DNA from: a virus
Taxonomy: Duplodnaviria > Caudoviricetes
Length of the DNA: 64,000 nt
Virus record (IMG/VR): IMGVR_UViG_3300030330_003269
Location: 1 to 64,000 of that record
Strand: one strand, 5' to 3'
The notes under the pieces were generated by a model that did not search any database, was not told where the DNA came from, and was given only the letters and a program-made list of their open reading frames with translations. Position 1 is the stretch's first letter. Every line of letters begins with the position of its first letter. Shown in pieces: positions 5,716 through 42,565 of the stretch. The translations under genes and the position numbers were made by a program.

Positions 5716-7388
5716 TAATAATGATTATTAATAAAATGAATGATGGAATGAGAATATACAAAGCATGGAGAGAGAACAATGAAAGAAAGTATGAGATGGT
5801 TAATTTCAGACCATATTTCTTTGTGGATGAAGAGGCTACTGAATTTCCTAGTTATTCGCCAAGTAAATATATCACTAGGGATTTTGAGTATCTTCGTGGC
5901 GATTGGACTAATCTTGAAGGGAAACCTTTGAAGAAAGTTTTTGTTGAAAACGCCAATGATATTCGTAATGCAAAGAAGATGTGGAATGAAACCTATGAAG
6001 CAGATGTTCCTTTGCATTTTCGGTATTGTGTTGATGAATTAGATGAAATGCCTGAATATAAACTGCGTAAGTGGTATTGGGATATGGAATGGCAACAAGG
6101 CGGAGAATATCACGACCAATTGACTACTATTGTTGTTTATGATAACTACGATGAGAAATACTATCAATGGGCTTGGTTTCCTAATCAAGACCAACATTGG
6201 GATTATACTTCACATGAAAGAAGTGATTGGGAAGGCCACTATTTTCCTTCTGAAAGAGAAATGATTGAACATTTTATGACTACAATGATTGTAAAAGACC
6301 CCGATATGTTAATTGCTTGGTTTGGTCATTTTGCTGATTTACCGAAATTATTTGAACGGGCGTGTGCCGTGGGTCTTGACCCTCGTATCATGTCTCCAAT
6401 TGGCTTCGTTAAGGGCGTTAAAAAGGTCAAGGATGGCTTCTCTTTCGCCTATGGTGAAAGTGGGTTCTCTCCCATTGAGCAACCCGTAGGGGGTCGCATA
6501 ACCCTCTCGTTAGACCTTGCTTTTGAAAGACAATGGAATGACAGTCAAAGAGGGACATTACCTTCTTTATCGCTTGATTACATCGGAGAGACTGTTCTTA
6601 ACAAAAAGAAATTGGTTTCTGAGAAGTTTCCAGACACTAACGAATTTTATCGCAAGGGTTGGTTAGAAGATACACAAACATACCTCAAATATGCTTTGAG
6701 AGATGTTGAATTGATGGTTGAAATTGATGAGAAAAATTTTTGTAGTGAAGCCATTCTTTCACTTCAAAGGCTATTGAAAGCACCATTTGATGCTTGTTTT
6801 TATGCTTCTCACATGGGTAGTATTTATTTTATGAGAAATGCTACTTGGAAAGCACCAACAGGAAAAAAGGTTGATGAACGCAAAGAATATGAAGGTGCGA
6901 TGATTTATGACCCATTAAGCGAAGAAACAAATGGATTACATTTGAATGTAGCCGCCTTTGATTTTGCTGGTCTATATCCTTCAATGATGATTGCTCGCAA
7001 TATCAGTTGGGAAACAAAATCAAAACAACCAACAGAATTTGCCGTGAACATTCTTACGCCAAGAGATTTTAGTGAAGTTAAATACCAAGATATGCTTTAC
7101 TATAAAACAGATAAACTTGGTCTTTTACCGAGAGCCGTTCTTGAATTGAAGGAGTTGCGAAATGAATATAAGCGACTTATGTATCAAGCACAAAAGGAGG
7201 ACAACGGCGAGTATGCAAAGTGGTATAACAATCAAATGGCTGTCAAGAGATTAATGGCTTCTTTTTATGGCATTGTTGCCTTTCAAGGATTTGGTTGGGC
7301 TGATGTTGATTTGGCTGCATCTATTACTGCAAGTGCAAGAGAAGCAATTAGACTTGCCGCATTTAAAGCAAAGGAGATGAAAATATGA
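5712..7388 (+). CDS. polB: Family B DNA polymerase, N-terminal part (3'-5' exonuclease plus motifs A and B)
   Basis: RPYFFV, YEADV, ExoI WDME, ExoIII YALRD, motif A FDFAGLYPS, motif B KRLMASFYG; ends before motif C. Confidence 0.93.
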   Translation: MIIMIINKMNDGMRIYKAWRENNERKYEMVNFRPYFFVDEEATEFPSYSPSKYITRDFEYLRGDWTNLEGKPLKKVFVENANDIRNAKKMWNETYEADVPLHFRYCVDELDEMPEYKLRKWYWDMEWQQGGEYHDQLTTIVVYDNYDEKYYQWAWFPNQDQHWDYTSHERSDWEGHYFPSEREMIEHFMTTMIVKDPDMLIAWFGHFADLPKLFERACAVGLDPRIMSPIGFVKGVKKVKDGFSFAYGESGFSPIEQPVGGRITLSLDLAFERQWNDSQRGTLPSLSLDYIGETVLNKKKLVSEKFPDTNEFYRKGWLEDTQTYLKYALRDVELMVEIDEKNFCSEAILSLQRLLKAPFDACFYASHMGSIYFMRNATWKAPTGKKVDERKEYEGAMIYDPLSEETNGLHLNVAAFDFAGLYPSMMIARNISWETKSKQPTEFAVNILTPRDFSEVKYQDMLYYKTDKLGLLPRAVLELKELRNEYKRLMYQAQKEDNGEYAKWYNNQMAVKRLMASFYGIVAFQGFGWADVDLAASITASAREAIRLAAFKAKEMKI

Positions 7389-27509: not shown

Positions 27510-29120
27510 TCACCCCTGCAAAACCCAATGAGTCTTAACTGTGCAAGTGTTTAATGTTCTTGGCATAACTGTTGCTTCAACAACAATTGGGCCTTTATCA
27601 TCAGCAATTGGGAAATTGTTTGCACTAACGAAGTAATCATCAAACTTCAAGGTGATGTTTTCCCCGTTTGCCTTTGTAAAGATTAATTCAATTGTTTGAG
27701 TCGTATCTTCAGAGTCATTCAAAAGAGCAGTATAAAGAGCATCATCAGTCACATGGCCCGTAAATGAAATCTCATAGGTTCTTTGGGCTGGAATTGCTTC
27801 TTGAACATCTTTACTACCAACGCCTAAGAATCTTCGGTCTTGAAGATTATTGTTCATTGTCAAAGTTAAAGAGTTAATCTTAAGGAAAGATTCACCGAGA
27901 ACCTTGAATGTTCCATCTGAGAAAAAGAACGGTTCTCTCATTTGGTCAGTATTTGTGGAACTTTCATAATTGAAGAAAGAAGTTTCAGCATCAACGCCTC
28001 TTCTTGCATCATATCTTTCACCCTGTTCTAAATCGTGAACATTTCTAGTATTTAGGTCAAGAGTCATTTTTACTTCTTCATTTTCGTTAGCGGTCATTGT
28101 TAAAGTATTGACTCGGCAACCTCTTGCGATTTTAACAAAGTTCAAATCTTCTGCTTCCGAAGCAGTATTTGTTCTGTATTGATTGGTTCCAGTTAATTTG
28201 GAGAGATTCTGTTCAAGAGAGAAAGAAGGCAGAAGGTCGCCATCTTGTTCACCGAAGGTATAGGTAATAGCATCAGAAATAGAAGTTGTTCCACTTGCTC
28301 TTGTTAATGTGTCCATATCACCCAAAGTATGCAAATGTGGAGCAAGCGGAGGACAGAATTTACTACCGATTGTTCTAAAGAAAAGAGGGCCAGTTTCGCT
28401 AACATTCGCAATATCTTTTCCACTTCCAGCAGTTACTCCTGTTGCTTCAATAAACACTTTGTTATTATCTCCTGAATTACCAGTAGCATAAATAGTAGGT
28501 GTTCCAGCAGGTTGAGCAACAGTAGCCTTTACATTGGTGCATTTACCCAAGAAATAATATAAGAAAGCACCGTGATTGGAAACTAATCCAAGATTACCTC
28601 CGCTAAAGGATGTAATTCCTTTATATTGATAGGTATAGTTTCTTGAACCACCGAGAGAAAGATTCATTTGTTTCATTTCAACCTCAGTAGTTGGAAAAGT
28701 AGCACTTTCAAGAATACCAATCCATTCATCGGATAATAGTCTCTTTGTTGCACTTCCTCCTGTTCCGTCCTTAACAGCAGGAACAGGTGCGCCATAGGAT
28801 TTAATTACAAAGTATGAACCCGTTGGAATATCAGTAAGACTGGGAGAAAAGACAATATCATCTAAAGTGTTAGATGTAATTCTATGTGTAGATTGCAGTT
28901 GATTAGTAGAATTATAACGCTCTAATAAACAACCTTTATATAAATTAGTAAGCAACAAGAAAGAAGAAGTAAAATCACTATCTACTCTAATTGTATCAAC
29001 TTCTCCTTTTCCATCATTAAAAGCCACATTGTCTGTGTGCTTTCCACCAACATAAATGTCGTTTTCTGGAATAAATGTTATACTTGCGCCGCTTCCTAAA
29101 AAAATGTCTGTATTTGCCAT
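27510..29120 (-). CDS. Major tail tube protein
   Basis: LPSFSLEQ, GCRVNTLTM, FFFSDG, SLTLTMNNNL and RTYEISF tube-protein pattern; start MANTDIF. Confidence 0.75.
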   Translation of the reverse strand: MANTDIFLGSGASITFIPENDIYVGGKHTDNVAFNDGKGEVDTIRVDSDFTSSFLLLTNLYKGCLLERYNSTNQLQSTHRITSNTLDDIVFSPSLTDIPTGSYFVIKSYGAPVPAVKDGTGGSATKRLLSDEWIGILESATFPTTEVEMKQMNLSLGGSRNYTYQYKGITSFSGGNLGLVSNHGAFLYYFLGKCTNVKATVAQPAGTPTIYATGNSGDNNKVFIEATGVTAGSGKDIANVSETGPLFFRTIGSKFCPPLAPHLHTLGDMDTLTRASGTTSISDAITYTFGEQDGDLLPSFSLEQNLSKLTGTNQYRTNTASEAEDLNFVKIARGCRVNTLTMTANENEEVKMTLDLNTRNVHDLEQGERYDARRGVDAETSFFNYESSTNTDQMREPFFFSDGTFKVLGESFLKINSLTLTMNNNLQDRRFLGVGSKDVQEAIPAQRTYEISFTGHVTDDALYTALLNDSEDTTQTIELIFTKANGENITLKFDDYFVSANNFPIADDKGPIVVEATVMPRTLNTCTVKTHWVLQG

Positions 29121-29149
29121 ATGCTTCTCCCCCTTTTCCAACTAACTTA

Positions 29150-32986: not shown

Positions 32987-33634
32987 TCACATCAACCATT
33001 TAGCCCAAGCCGCACCTTTTTGAATTGCCGCACCTAAATGAAGTCCACTTGAAGGAGGCTCATAACTCATCTGTCCTTGAGCATCAATCCAATATGGCCG
33101 TCCATAGCCGTCTGTTCCACTTGGAGGGATAGGATAGCCTGTTCCATTGTTCATAGCACCCTGCATTTGCTGGTATTGCTGTGTTTGTCCTGTGATACCT
33201 GCGATAGCCATACCTGCCGTTGGTTGTTGCATACCGCCTCCGAAGCCTTGAGATTCAAGGTATTGTTGCTTCGCAAGTTTCCTTTGGTTCACGACTTCTG
33301 TATTGATGGCTGATTGTAAAAGGGTATTTAAGTCTAATTCAATCTTTTCTTGGCTAATTTTATTAAACTCTTGCAAAGCATCATTATTGATGCTCATGTT
33401 GGAACCAGCAGTAGTAAAAGACAATTTAGAAAGAAGTTGAGAAACAACCCGATTAACTACATCTTCCATCAGTTGTTCAAGAGCAGATAAAAACTCCTTT
33501 CCGTGATATTGGAAAAATTCTTCAACATGGTTATCCTGTAAAGAAAGTAAGTTATTTACATTCTTAAATTGCTGGTCGTTTTGCGCTTGAACTGCATTTA
33601 AAACAGTTCCATTACTTGTTCCTAAAATTCCCAA
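32987..33634 (-). CDS. Gln/Gly-rich helical protein with amphipathic C-terminus
   Basis: Ends GAAIQKGAAWAKWLM; downstream of the GTPase. Confidence 0.7.
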   Translation of the reverse strand: MGILGTSNGTVLNAVQAQNDQQFKNVNNLLSLQDNHVEEFFQYHGKEFLSALEQLMEDVVNRVVSQLLSKLSFTTAGSNMSINNDALQEFNKISQEKIELDLNTLLQSAINTEVVNQRKLAKQQYLESQGFGGGMQQPTAGMAIAGITGQTQQYQQMQGAMNNGTGYPIPPSGTDGYGRPYWIDAQGQMSYEPPSSGLHLGAAIQKGAAWAKWLM

Positions 33635-33636
33635 AT

Positions 33637-34296
33637 TTATTCCTCCTTTTCTTCAATGGTTTCAATTTTGTTGTTCATCAAAAGATAATTAATTCTTTCA
33701 GTCATTAAAGTAATTCTAGTCATTAATTCTAGCACTTCTTCATTGGCCTTCTTGGTATCTGCTACGGCGGGTGGGGTTATAAACCAACCTGCTGATGTAA
33801 GAGACATAACATCTTTTTTGGACAATGTTTCAAGAGGGCCAGACTTAATTACCTTTGGAACCTTTGGAACGAATCTTTTGAATTCTAACCCATGTTTTTC
33901 TGCTAATACCTGTTGTTGAAGCATTTCTAATTGCATATACATAGCAGAATGTTTAGGACAATATGTTCCCATTAATGGTCTTCCCTTAACTACTTTATCT
34001 AAAGGCATAGGGGGTCTTAAATAATCTCCCGATTCCCAAATATGATGAAAACCACAAACCACACAACGGTCTTTCAAATTAAATTTCTTACCGTATTTAA
34101 TTCCCAAAAACTTCTTAGGCTCTGCCTTTAGAACAGTAGTGAGTTCCTTCAATTGTTTTTTCGGTGTAGCAGTTAAGAATTTATATTCCATTACTGCTCC
34201 ACTTGCTCTTGCCTGTTGAATGGGATTCAAGGCAGGATTAAACTGCGATGGTGCGTTTTGTCCAATTAAGTTCGGTTGTTGAAACATAGTAATCAA
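33637..34296 (-). CDS. Zn-binding hypothetical protein
   Basis: CVVC...YCPKH; overlaps the GTPase stop. Confidence 0.7.
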   Translation of the reverse strand: MITMFQQPNLIGQNAPSQFNPALNPIQQARASGAVMEYKFLTATPKKQLKELTTVLKAEPKKFLGIKYGKKFNLKDRCVVCGFHHIWESGDYLRPPMPLDKVVKGRPLMGTYCPKHSAMYMQLEMLQQQVLAEKHGLEFKRFVPKVPKVIKSGPLETLSKKDVMSLTSAGWFITPPAVADTKKANEEVLELMTRITLMTERINYLLMNNKIETIEEKEE

Positions 34297-34961
34297 TAGT
34301 CCTTTATCATTGTTGTGATTCCTAAATATACCATTTCGGGGTCTGATTTGGCTGATACAATATATTTGAAACAGGGTATTCCTTTATCATTTAATTTTCT
34401 CATACCATATTTAAATGGTTCAAATATCTCATGTTTATCTATGGATTTTCCTTCTTCTAATGGATATTTTTTTCCCCATATATCATATTTATTTGCCCAA
34501 ATTCCTACGGCCATTGGATAATCCGAATCTCTTTTCTTTTTTCCGTTTGACCATGTGTTTGAAATAATTGTATCTACTAAAAATTTCCATGCTAATTGGT
34601 GGTCTAAGTTTGCTTCACTATCTAAATGTCGGTGGTCAATCATAAAAATAAGATATTTAACTCTTCTTTCTCTCATATCTTTTTCCCATTCTTTCCAGTA
34701 AATTGCTTCTCCACCAATGTCTGCACTTTTAATGGTATGTGAATTTCCATCAATTTTAATATTCTTTCTTGAGGCTCTGTGTTTTCCTACAGTTCTTTGG
34801 TTTATTTGAGGAACTTCTCCCCGTGTTCTTAATTGATGACTAAGTGTTGTTTTACCAACCATTGTTGCCCCATAAACTCCAAAATTAATTGCGTGAACCT
34901 TTTTGTAGAATCCTATGATTGCTTCACCGACTAAAATAGCAAAGCCTGTCATTAGCGACAT
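34293..34961 (-). CDS. Arf/Sar1/Ras-superfamily small GTPase
   Basis: G1 GATMVGKTT, G2 RTVG, G3 DIGG, G4 NKYD, G5 SAK; hydrophobic/amphipathic N-terminal helix. Confidence 0.88.
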   Translation of the reverse strand: MSLMTGFAILVGEAIIGFYKKVHAINFGVYGATMVGKTTLSHQLRTRGEVPQINQRTVGKHRASRKNIKIDGNSHTIKSADIGGEAIYWKEWEKDMRERRVKYLIFMIDHRHLDSEANLDHQLAWKFLVDTIISNTWSNGKKKRDSDYPMAVGIWANKYDIWGKKYPLEEGKSIDKHEIFEPFKYGMRKLNDKGIPCFKYIVSAKSDPEMVYLGITTMIKDY

Positions 34962-34973
34962 TCATTTAACCAC

Positions 34974-35483
34974 CTAAAAATATTTATCTAACATTTTCTT
35001 TAAATGTTCTTGGACTCTTAACTCATCAAAACTTAACACCGCTGAATCCCTCAATGCCTCTATTACTTCGGTTTTTATACTGTTATATTCTAAATTACTC
35101 AGTAATTCCTTTCCTAGTTCTTTAACTCTTGAATCGGGTAAATATTTGTATTCTACATCACCATCAAAATATCCTAGTCTTCCCCTTGGAGTTGTGTCTC
35201 TTTGGCTACTTGTTATTCCATATTCATTATCATAGTCAAGAAATTTATTTTCTTTTGTAGGTATTGTTTGTTTTATCATAGGTTTAGAAATGTCTTTTAA
35301 TTCATCTGCCTTTGAGCCAAAAAATGCATAAATTAGTGCTTCTGTTAATCTTGGTGTCCAATATCCAGTATCTTCATCACCTTGAGAACCTTGAAATAAT
35401 CTATTAAATCTCCAAGACCAATCCCTTGAATATTCTTCATCTGTTTCAATAATATATGGTTTTTTCAAAATGTTCCACCACAT
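34974..35483 (-). CDS. WxxILK-tagged hypothetical protein
   Basis: Starts MWWNILKK; GYWTPRLTEALIYA. Confidence 0.65.
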   Translation of the reverse strand: MWWNILKKPYIIETDEEYSRDWSWRFNRLFQGSQGDEDTGYWTPRLTEALIYAFFGSKADELKDISKPMIKQTIPTKENKFLDYDNEYGITSSQRDTTPRGRLGYFDGDVEYKYLPDSRVKELGKELLSNLEYNSIKTEVIEALRDSAVLSFDELRVQEHLKKMLDKYF

Positions 35484-35484
35484 A

Positions 35485-35703
35485 TCAATGCCCCCACCCG
35501 TTCAACAAAGTGTCAAACAGGAAACCCATGATGTTTATACCAAAAACACCAAGAATATTTCCAACAAGGAAACCTGAAAGACAAGCGCAAGCACCCCAAA
35601 ACCATGCTCGCATTTTCAAGAAGAAAATGTCTGCCGAATGCGCTCTTTGTTGATTATAAGCGTAATCCGAATCGGAAAAGCCCATTAAGTCGCCAAAGAC
35701 CAT
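35485..35703 (-). CDS. Small membrane protein
   Basis: Hydrophobic stretch AWFWGACACLSGFLVGNILGVFGINIMGFLF; GAGGTGG RBS. Confidence 0.75.
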   Translation of the reverse strand: MVFGDLMGFSDSDYAYNQQRAHSADIFFLKMRAWFWGACACLSGFLVGNILGVFGINIMGFLFDTLLNGWGH

Positions 35704-35712
35704 TTAACCACC

Positions 35713-36099
35713 TCATTGTAGCGTGGCTAAAAATTCACTTCCGATAGTATTTTCTTCTGTTTCAGGTTGAGTGTAAAAAGGAACATTACCGCCAAATTGT
35801 CTTGCACTTTCTCGCATCTTTTGGCGTTGTTGTTCATCTCTAGCCTTTCTTTCCCAATAAGCAGCAATCTTTCTATCAAGTAGCCACATCTCAATTTTGT
35901 CATTGAGAGCCAAATCAAATACTGCCTTAACAACCATAATTGCTCCAATTGTTCCTAAACCAAATAGGAAAGAATGAGCAATAGGGCCGTATGGGAAAGT
36001 TAATCCAATCATAGCATAAACGAAAACATTTGCCCCGCTTAGAGTTCCAACGAATAAAATCGTCATAACTAACCTAGTGTCTGCATTTAAAGCCGCCAT
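35713..36099 (-). CDS. Two-TM membrane protein with charged C-terminus (holin-like topology)
   Basis: Two hydrophobic helices then a charged coiled tail; GAGGTGA RBS. Confidence 0.75.
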   Translation of the reverse strand: MAALNADTRLVMTILFVGTLSGANVFVYAMIGLTFPYGPIAHSFLFGLGTIGAIMVVKAVFDLALNDKIEMWLLDRKIAAYWERKARDEQQRQKMRESARQFGGNVPFYTQPETEENTIGSEFLATLQ

Positions 36100-36482: not shown

Positions 36483-36818
36483 TCACTCTTCGGTTAAAGA
36501 AGACTTTTTGGCTTTGGTAGCCGTTGTTTTCTTCTTTGTTCCTTTCTTTGGAAGAAACCTTGTTGCTAACTCATTATGAGTTTTAATGTCTTGGCCGATT
36601 TCAAGAGAAATAGCAGGGAAATGTTCGGGGTCAATAGCCATCATTTCCTTTCTATCCTCTTCTTGAAATGTAATTTCAAGGTTAGAATCACTCAAACGGA
36701 GAAGCGCAGCGACTACTGGTAATTCAATAGGATTTTCCCTAGTAAGTTTTTGACCATGAATAATGAATGGGTGAAAACCACCACTATCCGAGACTTCAAC
36801 TTTAACCAAAGGAACCAC
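36483..36818 (-). CDS. Hypothetical protein with Lys-rich tail
   Basis: ORF in the capsid operon. Confidence 0.65.
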   Translation of the reverse strand: MVPLVKVEVSDSGGFHPFIIHGQKLTRENPIELPVVAALLRLSDSNLEITFQEEDRKEMMAIDPEHFPAISLEIGQDIKTHNELATRFLPKKGTKKKTTATKAKKSSLTEE

Positions 36819-37417: not shown

Positions 37418-38767
37418 TCAAAGAAGGTTGGTAATCTTTCCTTGACCCTTGAAGTAAGAACAGCCCATTTCACCAATTGTTCGGTAAAGAGCCTTGTTTC
37501 CAAGACGGCCAACACCGAATGGGTTTCCATTGGAAATACCATCCTCAAAGTATTGAGTTGGCTTCATAACCGACAACCAAAGGTGGTCAGTATCAAGAAG
37601 CAACATATCGCTGATACAGGAAGTATTTGCACCCGTTGAAGGCATAGCGGCAACAGGAATCAAAGGAATGTCGTAATAGGTAGAAACACGGAAACCGACT
37701 TCTGCACCCTTAACACCACGAACACCGTTCACGGTTGGAACGATTTCCTTTCTGTCCATGAATCGCTCTTGAGCCTGAAGCAAGTCAGAAAGCGTTTGAA
37801 GCGTATCATATCCAGTAAGAATGACCTTTGGCGAACCACCAGCAATTCTCAAATCACGAAGCATGGAGTTAAGCACAGTCAAGGTAAATTGACGAGCATT
37901 TCCACTTGCATAGCCAGAGCCGAAAGAAACAGCAGAATCAAGGAAAGAAGCCGAATCACGGTTTGTTCCGTAAAGATGGCTAATTTCATCAGTAGTTGCC
38001 GAAGAAATCAAAACGGTTCCAGAAGCCATAGCATCCAATTCTGCCTTAGAAGAAATAATCTTGTAAAGAGAAGTGTAGTTGCGCTCAATCAGAGAAATTT
38101 GGTTGGTAGCATTCAAATCGTAGTTTTCAAGAGGCATAACAAGCATAGCATTCTGCACTTCAGAATGATGCTTACCCATGTCTTCTCTCAATTGAGCACG
38201 AATATCACCGATGCCATCATCAATAGCCGCCATTTCCATAGCAAGTTCCGAGAACTCAAATTGATGAGCAATAATCTTGGGACTCGTAAAGAGTTGAGTG
38301 TAAGTTGGAGCAATTGAAGCCAAACCGTCTTGATGGGTGTCTAAAGCCGCATTTTCGGGAACACCACCGATAAGGTCAGGACGCAAAGCCGCCGCACCAA
38401 TGTTAGCCGCACTACCAGCGATATTAACGCCAGTCAAATCAAGGAAATTACCGCTACCACCAGCAGGTCGCTCCTTTAGGACTCTCCAACCACTTGAAGT
38501 GTAAGGTCGCTTTGAAATAACCGAAAGTGCGTTGCATTCACGGTTCAACATAGACCAGACCTTTTGGCCGTAAATTTTGTTATAAAGAGCAGTAGTGTCG
38601 GAAATAGCACTAAAGCCATTTGCGGCGGTTCCTGCAACATCATGTCCAGCATGAATACCAGCAACACCGCCCGCTTGCTTAAGCAATTGGTTGTTAAGGC
38701 CAGTATGACCAGTCAATCCGTAAGTTTGTCTTTCTAAGTCTGCAATTGTGTTAATATATCCTGTCAT
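37418..38767 (-). CDS. Major capsid protein (HK97 fold)
   Basis: Follows the prohead protease; YGQKVWSMLN, PKIIAHQFEFSE, GFRVSTYYDIPLIP, LLLDTDHL, QGKITNL. Confidence 0.88.
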   Translation of the reverse strand: MTGYINTIADLERQTYGLTGHTGLNNQLLKQAGGVAGIHAGHDVAGTAANGFSAISDTTALYNKIYGQKVWSMLNRECNALSVISKRPYTSSGWRVLKERPAGGSGNFLDLTGVNIAGSAANIGAAALRPDLIGGVPENAALDTHQDGLASIAPTYTQLFTSPKIIAHQFEFSELAMEMAAIDDGIGDIRAQLREDMGKHHSEVQNAMLVMPLENYDLNATNQISLIERNYTSLYKIISSKAELDAMASGTVLISSATTDEISHLYGTNRDSASFLDSAVSFGSGYASGNARQFTLTVLNSMLRDLRIAGGSPKVILTGYDTLQTLSDLLQAQERFMDRKEIVPTVNGVRGVKGAEVGFRVSTYYDIPLIPVAAMPSTGANTSCISDMLLLDTDHLWLSVMKPTQYFEDGISNGNPFGVGRLGNKALYRTIGEMGCSYFKGQGKITNLL

Positions 38768-40042: not shown

Positions 40043-42565
40043 CTATTCGTTGGTAGGAATGGGCAACTTGTTATACCTATCTTCGTAAATGTTCCACTTT
40101 CCTGTGTCCGAGTCGGTGTCTGCTGGCTTTTGTTTATATCCAGTCCAAGCAAGCCACATTCTTTCTCCTTTAACAGGAATGACTCTAATATGTAATTTAG
40201 TTTCAAACTTATTCCCTTCTAAGAAATATTCATGATAGCCATCTTTTTGAACACCAAGTTTGATTTTACCAGAATCAATGACTTTTCCTCTTTCAACATT
40301 CTTTGAAACTTCTGCTGGATATTTACCAGCCGCTCCGAATAAATCAAAGAGTTCTTCTTCATTCTCTAAATCAATAGTCCAATGCATTACTTCATCTTCA
40401 ACTTTAATGCTCAAGTGAACTCTATTATCCTCTCTAGCATAGATTTTAAAATTACCTTCTTGGTATTCTTTTGGTGTTTTGTATTGTTTTATGATTTCTT
40501 CATTTTGTAAAATTACATCGGGGTCTGCGTGTAGTTTTCCATTAACCATAGAAAGGTGTTCTCTTTCTTGCGCCCAACTGCCTAACTTAGATTGCTTAGA
40601 ATCCAAAATATCTTCATAAGTTTCCTTCATGTTTCTCATTAAGAAATCATGAACATCTTTAACACTTCTATCTCCTTTTTCTTGCAAATAATTAACAATA
40701 GAAACAGTAAGTTTTCCTTGCTTTGTTTTCATAATTTCTTCTGCTTGAGTTTTCCAAAGGTCAATGTCTTGTAAAGCATTCTTTGACATTAGATTATTTT
40801 CTTCAAAACCATAGATAGTAAATCCATTCATGTCATACTTGATAATAGCATTGGCTTCTCCATGAATATGGTCTGTAATTTTAACTCCTTTCGTAAAGGC
40901 TTCAACATCATAGTTTAGAGATTTTTTAGTATCTTGAGATAATAGTTCTAAAGTGACTAGTTTATCTGGGTGTTCAACCTCTGGAACTTCAATTACTTTA
41001 GCAGAGAATAAACTATACCCTTCACCTTTCTTTTTAACTTCATCCACTTTTACTCTAATAATATCCCCAACATCAACAGAAATCTTAGTGTTCAATGCTT
41101 TTCCTACATTTAAATACATTCTTCCTTCAATTTCTTGAAGGTTCTTCATTTCTTCATTAATTGGGCCGATACCTACTGTATAGGAATATAATTTAGATTT
41201 TGTTTTAGATTTGTCTAAAACGATAACATCTAAATCAACAAATTTCTTTAACTTAATCCACTTCGGATTCTTTTTTGTTCCTACATAATAAGTTGAAGTA
41301 GCGTCTTTAATAACTACTCCCTCAGATGTTGGCATTTGCATAATCTGTTCAGCGTATTCTTTTAAGTCCTTTAGACTGTCTGCCTGACGAGTATCTTTCT
41401 TTGAAGGAAAATCAATTGCTTCGGAAGATTTAGAAGAATAGTTATTGAATAGAGTTGTCATTCTCACTTCAAGTTCTTCTTCCATCATATTTTGAGATTC
41501 ATGTCTCATAATATCAAAAACATGACACCTTAGTTTAGCATCTTTATATTTATTTTTAAATACATGAGCGATAGTATCTGCACGATGAAGAGGTTCATCA
41601 CCATCAAACAAGATTAGTTCCGCATCAAGAATACAATCACCATATTCCTTTTTCTTAAGTTCTTCAACCTGTTCTTTACATTTATCAGTAATATCCTTTT
41701 CATTATAAGAAAAGACCTTAATGTTATTATCAATCTTATGTAATTGAACTCTCATGCCATCATATTTTTCTTGAATATACCAATTGCCACTAAATCCTTT
41801 CAATTCATTAATGTCATCAATTTCAAAAATTCTATACATGGGTTTATTTGGAATAATAAAATCACTTTGTGCTTTTTTCTCGGAAGACTTCTTTTCTTCC
41901 TTTTTCATATCAATATCTTTAAGTTCTTCAAATTCTTTTTCTGTGTTTTGAGAAAGCATAATTAATTCTAACATATCCATAGCGGCCTTTACTTTTGATT
42001 CAACCTTCTTTGAGTCTTTTCCATCCCCGTAATGCTCCGTAATGTAGAGGGCCACATCGTCCACTTCTAGGTCAAGTCCTTGAAGACCCGCCGTAATTCG
42101 GTCAGGTTCCATGTCTTTAATGCTCAAAACCTCTTCGGAAAGCGTTTTATTGTCGTCTCTTATAGCATAATGAACAAATTTAACCATTGATTCAGGATTA
42201 GTCATTAATTCTTCCAAGACTCCATCACCAAAGGAAGCGGCGAAGGGGTCGGCCACCAGCGACGAAGTATAGCGAATTAATTTTATTTTCTTGTAAAGTT
42301 CCTTTGCTTGAGGAGATTTAGGGTCTTTTGCTTCCTTAGCATCTAAGTCCTTCTCGTCAATAAAGTTTTTTAATTCTTTTCCAGCAGCATCTAATTCTTC
42401 ATATGATTCCCTAATCATATCAACTGCTTTACGCCAACGACCCCCGTATTCATCGGGGTCTTCATTAGCAGATAAATAAGCAACTCTGGTCTTTTCAAAA
42501 AGACGAAGCAGTTCAACAGAAGGCTGCTTATCTTTCTCAATTGACCCAAGTTTCATTGATACCAC
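40043..42565 (-). CDS. lig: ATP-dependent DNA ligase with N- and C-terminal extensions
   Basis: Motif I EKYDGMR, III ILDAEL, IIIa VFDI, IV EGVVIK, V WIKLK, and an OB domain. Confidence 0.9.
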   Translation of the reverse strand: MVSMKLGSIEKDKQPSVELLRLFEKTRVAYLSANEDPDEYGGRWRKAVDMIRESYEELDAAGKELKNFIDEKDLDAKEAKDPKSPQAKELYKKIKLIRYTSSLVADPFAASFGDGVLEELMTNPESMVKFVHYAIRDDNKTLSEEVLSIKDMEPDRITAGLQGLDLEVDDVALYITEHYGDGKDSKKVESKVKAAMDMLELIMLSQNTEKEFEELKDIDMKKEEKKSSEKKAQSDFIIPNKPMYRIFEIDDINELKGFSGNWYIQEKYDGMRVQLHKIDNNIKVFSYNEKDITDKCKEQVEELKKKEYGDCILDAELILFDGDEPLHRADTIAHVFKNKYKDAKLRCHVFDIMRHESQNMMEEELEVRMTTLFNNYSSKSSEAIDFPSKKDTRQADSLKDLKEYAEQIMQMPTSEGVVIKDATSTYYVGTKKNPKWIKLKKFVDLDVIVLDKSKTKSKLYSYTVGIGPINEEMKNLQEIEGRMYLNVGKALNTKISVDVGDIIRVKVDEVKKKGEGYSLFSAKVIEVPEVEHPDKLVTLELLSQDTKKSLNYDVEAFTKGVKITDHIHGEANAIIKYDMNGFTIYGFEENNLMSKNALQDIDLWKTQAEEIMKTKQGKLTVSIVNYLQEKGDRSVKDVHDFLMRNMKETYEDILDSKQSKLGSWAQEREHLSMVNGKLHADPDVILQNEEIIKQYKTPKEYQEGNFKIYAREDNRVHLSIKVEDEVMHWTIDLENEEELFDLFGAAGKYPAEVSKNVERGKVIDSGKIKLGVQKDGYHEYFLEGNKFETKLHIRVIPVKGERMWLAWTGYKQKPADTDSDTGKWNIYEDRYNKLPIPTNE

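Follow-up and report, generated by a model that had tools for sequence, protein, structure and literature searches.

The window analysed here is the first 64 kb (64,000 nucleotides) of IMGVR_UViG_3300030330_003269, a 96,765-base virus record rated complete by CheckV. On its minus strand, between positions 32987 and 36099, lies a single block of six open reading frames (ORFs) separated by intergenic gaps of -4 to 12 nt, in which the gene for a small GTPase of 222 amino acids (aa) is set among genes for predicted membrane proteins and two orphan proteins. An earlier note on this DNA had proposed that an Arf/Sar1-like GTPase and its neighbours form a candidate egress or membrane-remodelling module at this site. 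All of the ORFs that it described are present, including the two transmembrane proteins upstream of the GTPase and the Cys/His and Gln/Gly proteins downstream; its list gave the five core genes but omitted the 169-aa ORF at 34974-35483. The genes of the block, in the order in which they are read, are as follows:

35713-36099, minus strand: cassette gene 1, a 128-aa membrane protein in which two predicted transmembrane segments (residues ~10-33 and ~40-66) precede a charged helical tail at the C-terminus (from hydropathy)
35485-35703, minus strand: cassette gene 2, a membrane protein of 72 aa whose single long hydrophobic segment (residues ~33-67) is Gly-rich (from hydropathy)
34974-35483, minus strand: a 169-aa acidic accessory gene with the N-terminal leader MWWNILKK, lying between the small transmembrane gene and the GTPase gene and not part of the core
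34293-34961, minus strand: cassette gene 3, the 222-aa small GTPase (from G-box motifs, an AlphaFold2 model and structural neighbours)
33637-34296, minus strand: cassette gene 4, a 219-aa basic orphan with CxxC...CPxH, a putative zinc site (the Cys/His protein)
32987-33634, minus strand: cassette gene 5, a 215-aa orphan whose helical central domain is joined by a Gln/Gly/Met-rich linker to an amphipathic helix at the C-terminus (the Gln/Gly protein)

The tight coupling of these genes between the capsid and tail genes, also claimed earlier, is seen in the gaps given above and in the flanks, which are the capsid gene at 37418-38767 and the tail tube gene at 27510-29141. The cassette occupies the strand of the late structural genes, with capsid and head genes on one side and neck and tail genes on the other; its G+C content is that of the rest of the genome, and it is the sole cluster of adjacent membrane-protein genes across the 96.8-kb genome. 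The ORF block is far beyond chance because each gene is conserved in hundreds of contigs. Membrane features are found on four of the five core proteins, namely the two integral membrane proteins, the anchor of the GTPase and the amphipathic helix of the Gln/Gly protein. The proposed membrane placement of the module is thereby backed by transmembrane segments, anchor and amphipathic C-terminus, and the host cytoplasmic membrane is the predicted meeting place of the cassette products. We are confident that the cassette is a real, conserved, membrane-associated GTPase module.

Conservation of the cassette in viral relatives

IMG/VR yielded 272 loci of a clade close to the window and 297 loci recovered with the profile of a distant clade, on contigs of up to ~100 kb; the GTPases of the distant clade are ~30-35% identical to the window protein. 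Counts per clade rest on the 80 close-clade loci kept (83-98% GTPase identity) and on 80 distant-clade loci, while the make-up of the module was surveyed by iterative profile searches over the six-frame ORFs of 165 loci. The Cys/His gene lies immediately 3' of the GTPase gene on the same strand at 161 of these 165 loci, in three lineages (the two clades and that of locus L001), and the Gln/Gly family was found in all 80 distant loci as well as in L001. Comparison of the families between clades by hhalign gave a probability of 100% (E 2e-55) for the Cys/His proteins and of 99.6% (E 4e-24) for the Gln/Gly proteins, the latter over the central helical domain and not the low-complexity part. Within the close clade, the 128-aa and 72-aa membrane genes are each present at 78 of 80 loci. 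When relatives were sampled by their capsid gene, all five core genes were present in every one of the 36 that had enough downstream sequence. The synteny of the five genes in other viruses, on which the earlier note had staked its proposal, is borne out by this sampling and by the GTPase-Cys/His-Gln/Gly trio common to the three lineages.

A membrane-protein pair of the same architecture precedes the GTPase in all three lineages. Upstream of the GTPase genes of a distant-clade locus and of L001, the pair is encoded as follows:

L090 (distant clade), 6178-6738: two-transmembrane protein with a long charged coiled tail
L090 (distant clade), 6750-6998: small one-transmembrane protein
L001, 6570-6986: two-transmembrane protein with a long charged coiled tail
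L001, 6995-7207: small one-transmembrane protein

The distant clade and L001 carry, in addition, an extra small transmembrane gene after the Gln/Gly gene.

Mean pairwise identities, calculated over the 48 close-clade loci with all genes, rank the products of the region as follows:

GTPase, 86.2%
Gln/Gly protein, 82.4%
two-transmembrane protein, 81.5%
major capsid protein, 76.4%
small transmembrane protein, 75.4%
Cys/His protein, 74.6%
neighbouring head-accessory genes, 41-58%

The GTPase is the top-conserved gene of the region in both clades, with 70.4% identity in the distant clade. Purifying selection on the GTPase is strong, given this rank in both clades and, in the close clade, 86% identity against 76% for the capsid protein. 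The position of the cassette varies: it follows the capsid and head-accessory genes in the window, lies ~7 kb upstream of the large terminase gene in a complete 103-kb genome of the distant clade, and in L001 stands beside two glycosyltransferase genes and further small transmembrane genes, with no capsid gene within the 16.7 kb examined. The cassette changes place as one block; modularity of this kind is common in lysis cassettes, whereas core virion genes usually hold their order. The five core genes constitute a virus-specific, vertically inherited cassette.

The 169-aa gene does not share in this conservation. Its family was detected at only three close-clade loci, and the slot that it occupies, between the small transmembrane gene and the GTPase gene, is empty at 68 of 78 close-clade loci. 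Filled slots hold assorted unrelated genes. Three that recur open with a W-x-x-I-L-K leader, in the forms MWWNILK, MWKKILK and MWFSILK, and share 'GGGI[ND]' in the translation of the sequence ahead of it. Examples of slot inserts are found at the following positions:

window, 34974-35483, minus strand
L013, 6038-6996
L008, 3796-4314

The slot is an insertion hot spot, and the 169-aa gene is an accessory insert outside the module.

The GTPase and its partner proteins

The five G boxes that the earlier note had read in the 222-aa protein were all located in the ORF at 34293-34961, and with G1-G5 in place the window GTPase conforms to the motif pattern of the Ras superfamily (TRAFAC). The features of the protein are listed here by residue:

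Residues 2-22 (34896-34958): N-terminal hydrophobic anchor
Residues 31-39 (34845-34871): G1, GATMVGKTT
Residue 57: G2, Thr57, within an 'RT' pair
Residues 81-85 (34707-34721): G3, DIGGE
Residues ~134-150 (given as 34482-34560, minus strand): family-specific polybasic loop
Residues 157-160 (34482-34493): G4, NKYD
Residues 204-206: G5, SAK

G1, G2 and G4 are intact at 160 of 160 IMG/VR loci, as is the 'RT' pair, and DxGG was found at 80 of 80 loci of the close clade and at 71 of 80 of the distant clade. Wherever it was found, this motif is followed by a polar residue (E, Q, D or H), in keeping with a working switch; the residue is Glu at all 80 close-clade loci and Gln at 42 of the 80 distant-clade loci, the others having Glu, Asp or His where the motif was found. 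A conserved Trp follows DxGG in switch II, and a helix lies immediately before beta-1. The protein is predicted to be competent for nucleotide binding and to adopt an Arf-like fold. The polybasic loop (KKKR here, Arg/Lys-rich in all clades, with a K-x-Y-x-P end) lies between helix 3 and strand 5 and could touch lipid head groups or nucleic acid.

An AlphaFold2 model of the GTPase, made with the family alignment, had a predicted local distance difference test score (pLDDT) of 89.1 and a predicted template-modelling score of 0.85. All of the 500 matches listed by Foldseek had E <= 0.001, the best TM-scores (0.77-0.81) being those of Arf6, Arl1, Arf1 and Arl3. In a structural alignment (VIA), ranks 1-37 were all Arf or Arl proteins (Z 19.1-17.9, with a root-mean-square deviation of 2.2-2.7 Å for nearly all, over ~160 residues). 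Next came G-alpha-i, Asgard ArfR and a RagA-like protein, with Rab entries appearing first at Z 17.6, a lead of Arf/Arl over Rab of only ~1.5 Z.

The N-terminal helix had been likened to the membrane-binding helices of Arf and Sar1. A hydrophobic helix is indeed present at residues 2-22, but the amphipathicity of the Arf/Sar1 type is not: in the window protein the helix is uniformly hydrophobic, with a Kyte-Doolittle value of 1.8 and a hydrophobic moment of 0.19, and over the tested range the values were 1.1-2.0 and 0.06-0.20, with no myristoylation-type Gly2. The Arf1 and Sar1 helices, in comparison, have a moment of ~0.27 and low hydrophobicity. The hydrophobic stretch begins at residue 2-3, with Lys-Lys or Arg-Arg after it, and would under the positive-inside rule be an N-out, C-in signal anchor that leaves the G domain in the cytoplasm, as in SR-beta. 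SR-beta carries an Arf-related G domain on a single N-terminal hydrophobic anchor and has a non-Gln residue after G3. The viral GTPase fits this architecture, and 8 of 22 family members gave weak matches to the SRPRB model (PF09439), the score of the window protein being 12.7 against a 25-bit cut-off. The two differ in setting, as the viral gene belongs to a late operon and not to protein-targeting machinery, and the viral cassette is without an SR-alpha-like partner.

Placement of the GTPase within the superfamily was approached through models, profiles and a tree. Taken as a single sequence, the GTPase is highly divergent: the Pfam Arf model (PF00025) gave no match to the window GTPase at E <= 0.1; MMR_HSR1, Ras and SRPRB were the only Pfam matches, all below cut-off. 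The best single-sequence PDB matches were Arl8 structures (E ~0.2), while a profile of 22 family members matched EngA (6e-10), the Asgard entry 8oun (3e-9) and Arl3 (8e-9), and also Ras. When the 22 members were scanned with Pfam, Arf was matched by 8, with a best E of 1.9e-15 among remote members, and G-alpha recurred alongside SRPRB. A quick maximum-likelihood tree was built from the viral family and its remote relatives, 30 small GTPases of one Asgard genome and three ArvA sequences, with no eukaryotic references. In this limited tree the viral family and a few remote relatives form a separate clade (Shimodaira-Hasegawa-like approximate likelihood ratio test (SH-aLRT) 100, branch length 0.91) that falls inside none of the Arf-like, Ras-like and ArvA groups.

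In that limited tree, which takes in the ArvA and Asgard part of the phylogeny called for by the earlier note, the protein falls in a deep clade of its own, outside ArvA and the Asgard Arf/Ras-like groups. Its Arf/Sar1-like identity stands in part: the protein is a small GTPase whose nearest solved folds are Arf and Arl, but the Pfam Arf match, the catalytic Gln and the amphipathic helix are lacking. With the Arf family (Arf1, Arf6, Arl1, Arl3, Arl8 and Sar1, and the Asgard ArfR structures 8OUN, 8OUM and 8OUK) it has in common the fold, DxGG with the following Trp and the helix before beta-1. Arf proteins have a catalytic Gln in WDxGGQ and an amphipathic helix, whereas the viral GTPase has Glu, a hydrophobic helix and the polybasic insert; domains of known Arf guanine nucleotide exchange factors or GTPase-activating proteins were not found near it. 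The GTPase is Arf-like in fold and in its DxGG motif but is not a clear member of the Arf family, because the window protein fails the Pfam Arf model, Glu follows DxGG, the helix is not amphipathic and the family forms its own long-branch clade in the limited tree.

A search from the remote member P0175 brought in five further relatives on short contigs and no bridge to named cellular families, and the remote relatives L175, L280 and L004 are without the cassette partners. At L175 (109-2752) the remote relative measures 251 aa, and behind it come an unrelated protein of 219 aa that has hydrophobic segments, then genes for a trypsin-like protease and Trypco1; these surroundings look more like a conflict or defence system than a virion operon. 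On the 11-kb contig of P0148, a cassette-clade GTPase of 264 aa lies beside Tad2-like and Acb5 anti-defence genes and an integrase gene.

The partner proteins are largely orphans. Searches of the cassette proteins of three lineages against PHROGs, Pfam and NCBIfam returned nothing beyond weak generic GTPase matches. In the 128-aa protein a charged tail (residues 67-128) follows the two transmembrane segments, and the 72-aa protein has a transmembrane segment and no charged tail. A 'RAW.W' motif, considered as a common signature of the small transmembrane proteins, was on checking not conserved and was dropped.

The Cys/His gene overlaps or abuts the GTPase stop codon, although its start may instead be the ATG of residue 4. 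In the alignment of its products C78 is invariant, and C113 and H116 are present in at least 90% of rows. The protein had no match in Pfam, NCBIfam, PHROG, PDB or the protein Atlas (where only sub-threshold unnamed clusters appeared), and its AlphaFold2 model, with a pLDDT of 54, was too poor for a fold search. Prediction of a complex between GTPase residues 20-222 and the Cys/His protein gave a score of 0.00, which bears neither for nor against binding. The Gln/Gly protein had no PDB profile match, and its single Atlas match was weak and unnamed. Its C-terminal helix, with a hydrophobic moment of 0.33-0.39 in the window and of 0.33-0.55 over three lineages, looks like a membrane-targeting sequence.

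Virus and host

Genes for the large terminase, portal and prohead protease are also present in the window, and a long protein with transmembrane segments is tape measure-like in appearance. Features placed on the map are the following:

37418-38767: major capsid protein, HK97-type
27510-29141: tail tube
40043-42565, minus strand: protein of 840 aa that contains an ATP-dependent DNA ligase domain, its gene lying within the head module and immediately upstream of the gene for the prohead protease

A protein of the Poseidoniales virus YSH_150918 is among the close homologues of the GTPase, and a distant-clade GTPase lies on a 106-kb contig of the Poseidoniales single-cell genome AG-422-I20 (L169), a contig that is magrovirus-sized and viral-looking. 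The latter directly supports assignment of the host to the Poseidoniales. Because of this homologue and this cassette relative, the window is assigned to a magrovirus, one of the tailed viruses that infect the abundant Marine Group II archaea of the ocean.

The GTPase family is confined almost wholly to virus-like contigs. Among 1.8 billion representative proteins searched, only 62 representative clusters were matched at E <= 0.001, and none is a canonical cellular GTPase. Across 185,579 species genomes only five loci were found, consisting of the AG-422-I20 contig and four short contigs from metagenome-assembled genomes; the four (L166, L167, L168 and L170) are 8-16 kb long, carry the cassette GTPase in assemblies labelled Promethearchaeati, Maricaulis and Parvibaculum, and are most likely mis-binned viral contigs. 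Searches by blastn and tblastn against 50,697 phage records gave no match for either GTPase clade, in a collection that may leave out near relatives. On the host side, the Pfam Arf model at E <= 0.001 found nothing in 41 sampled, incomplete Poseidoniales genomes. OapB, a partner in the ArvABC vesiculation system of other archaea, was present in 33 of 61 Thermoplasmatota genomes and in none of the 7 Poseidoniales of that sample, whose genomes are incomplete; the host order may be without that system.

Exact matches to short contigs of one marine metatranscriptome sample were found at 34722-34880, 35162-35359, 35646-35812 and 36520-36680, which hints at the presence of the virus, and perhaps at its transcription, in that sample. 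These contigs span small parts of the region only and do not reveal the operon structure.

What the cassette may do

The layout of the cassette suggests a mechanism in which the anchored GTPase would switch between GTP and GDP states at the membrane. Its regulator or effector would be the Cys/His protein, to which it is translationally coupled, and the Gln/Gly protein would be a peripheral membrane scaffold recruited by its C-terminal amphipathic helix. The two-transmembrane protein with the charged tail and the small Gly-rich transmembrane protein would together provide a membrane-active, holin-like output. Late in infection, the switch would time or localise membrane remodelling or permeabilisation, leading to virion release. 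We tentatively favour egress or membrane disruption as the job of the cassette, a reading drawn from architecture and position. Its most specific form, a GTP-timed release machine unlike any virus system seen, in which a membrane-anchored Arf-like switch, an orphan regulator and a peripheral scaffold would trigger two holin-like proteins into opening or reshaping the membrane of hosts whose sampled genomes gave no Arf-model match, is possible but rather unlikely.

Comparison with phage holin/antiholin cassettes illustrates what speaks for and against release. The viral membrane pair is holin-like in build, and the 128-aa protein answers to the description of a holin given in PMC10791045 (small, at least one transmembrane segment, a charged tail), a loose description; there is no adjacent endolysin gene and no holin-family match, and the cassette neighbours gave no lytic enzyme match in Pfam or PHROGs. 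To our knowledge, no holin system contains a GTPase.

Several observations weigh against the proposed release function. No cassette protein matches lysis, holin, ESCRT or vesiculation families, and the looseness of the holin description lessens the weight of the resemblance. The close-clade cassette is flanked by head and tail genes, a place that would equally suit morphogenesis factors. Homology of the membrane proteins between clades is unsupported by hhalign (E 3e-3 and a probability of 10% for the two-transmembrane proteins, E 0.26 for the one-transmembrane proteins), and controls between unrelated transmembrane proteins score like these cross-clade comparisons. In the L001 lineage the Cys/His protein has lost its putative zinc site. 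Finally, support for transcription consists of a few exact short contigs from one metatranscriptome, which may stem from carried-over DNA.

The position of the cassette invites another explanation, namely that the anchored GTPase and its partners form a membrane-bound assembly platform that organises the site where heads and tails are built or joined, with the switch as an assembly checkpoint. The genes share a strand with the capsid/head-completion genes and the neck/tail genes between which they lie, at gaps of 9 nt, the distant-clade cassette is again in a late block, upstream of the large terminase gene, and the cassette is conserved like the structural genes or more so. This position relative to structural genes is, however, not kept between the clades, and in L001 the cassette sits beside glycosyltransferase genes with no capsid gene in 16.7 kb. 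We know of no GTPase-dependent assembly step in tailed viruses, which we count against such a platform, and consider it unlikely.

Equally unlikely in our estimate is a role in host takeover or exclusion at the envelope (superinfection exclusion, a division block or a surface change) with no direct part in release. The products are all predicted at the membrane, the L001 cassette adjoins two glycosyltransferase genes and small transmembrane genes, and accessory genes insert into the cassette, all of which would suit such a role. Exclusion and takeover genes are, however, usually variable and often early, whereas the cassette is universal in its clade, exceeds the capsid gene in conservation and is co-directional with the late genes.

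A vesicle or budding machine resembling ArvABC, with outward vesiculation leading to non-lytic release or to decoy vesicles, is less probable still. In Haloferax, ArvA and the products of two downstream genes govern vesicle formation, ArvB being a SepF-like DUF2073 protein and ArvC a zinc-ribbon protein (PMC10927574). ArvABC (OapABC), whose role in membrane vesiculation was demonstrated by experiment, combines a euryarchaeal membrane GTPase with two small conserved proteins encoded after it, one of which has zinc-type Cys ligands. The viral gene order looks parallel, one partner of the viral GTPase having Cys/His ligands of zinc type. The sampled Poseidoniales were without an Arf match and the seven tested were without OapB, so that the virus could supply a missing function. 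Against this, ArvA proteins encoded next to OapB in three genomes of Thermoplasmatota carry DTPG as their G3 motif, begin with an amphipathic N-terminus and fall into a separate clade (SH-aLRT 99 in the limited tree); the viral family profile matches ArvA at 2e-6 to 4e-5, mainly in the N-terminal half. Neither OapB (PF09846) nor OapC (DUF2072) came up when both downstream proteins of the three lineages were scanned with Pfam, with E allowed to reach 1, a result with which too remote a homology would also be compatible. ArvABC is, moreover, a cellular system without integral membrane partners, whereas the viral cassette has two, and tailed virions are not enveloped. The parallel with ArvA/OapA drawn by the earlier note is not supported as kinship, no homology having been found in the G3 motif, the tree or the Pfam matches of the partners; the resemblance to ArvABC, being an analogy, is one of logic and not of family membership.

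That the GTPase is a recent sporadic host capture without a dedicated viral role, an origin that the earlier note had singled out for checking, is not the case and can be set aside as already contradicted, the automated name 'GTPase SAR1 family protein' on some JGI records being outweighed by the 62 representative clusters among 1.8 billion proteins with no canonical cellular GTPase, the 272 and 297 IMG/VR loci in two clades ~30-35% identical, the mere five loci in 185,579 species genomes, the absence of an Arf-model match at E <= 0.001 in 41 Poseidoniales genomes, the family's own long-branch clade and a cassette G+C equal to that of the genome. In this the GTPase differs from the mimivirus Rab (5XC5), another virus-encoded Ras-superfamily GTPase and a structural neighbour at Z 17.6: the latter is a clear Rab captured from a eukaryotic host, whereas the magrovirus protein represents a virus-specific family whose host samples have no Arf match.

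Neither the GTPase nor the cassette is mentioned in the searchable literature, including the magrovirus papers and a survey of tailed archaeal viruses, where an unremarked label in supplements is possible. The players in egress of tailed archaeal viruses are described as completely uncharacterised, and no holins have been identified in archaeal viruses (PMC10791045), which makes the release function proposed here a candidate worth testing. The cassette offers five concrete genes with which to test the ways in which these viruses may affect the host membrane or exit through it. Its existence means that Arf-like small GTPases paired with membrane partners occur in viruses of Euryarchaeota, outside eukaryotes and Asgard archaea, and it bears on the evolution of GTPase-controlled membrane remodelling. 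If the cassette is a GTP-timed release machine, tailed archaeal viruses would have their first identified egress system, and small-GTPase control of membranes would have arisen outside eukaryotes and Asgard archaea.

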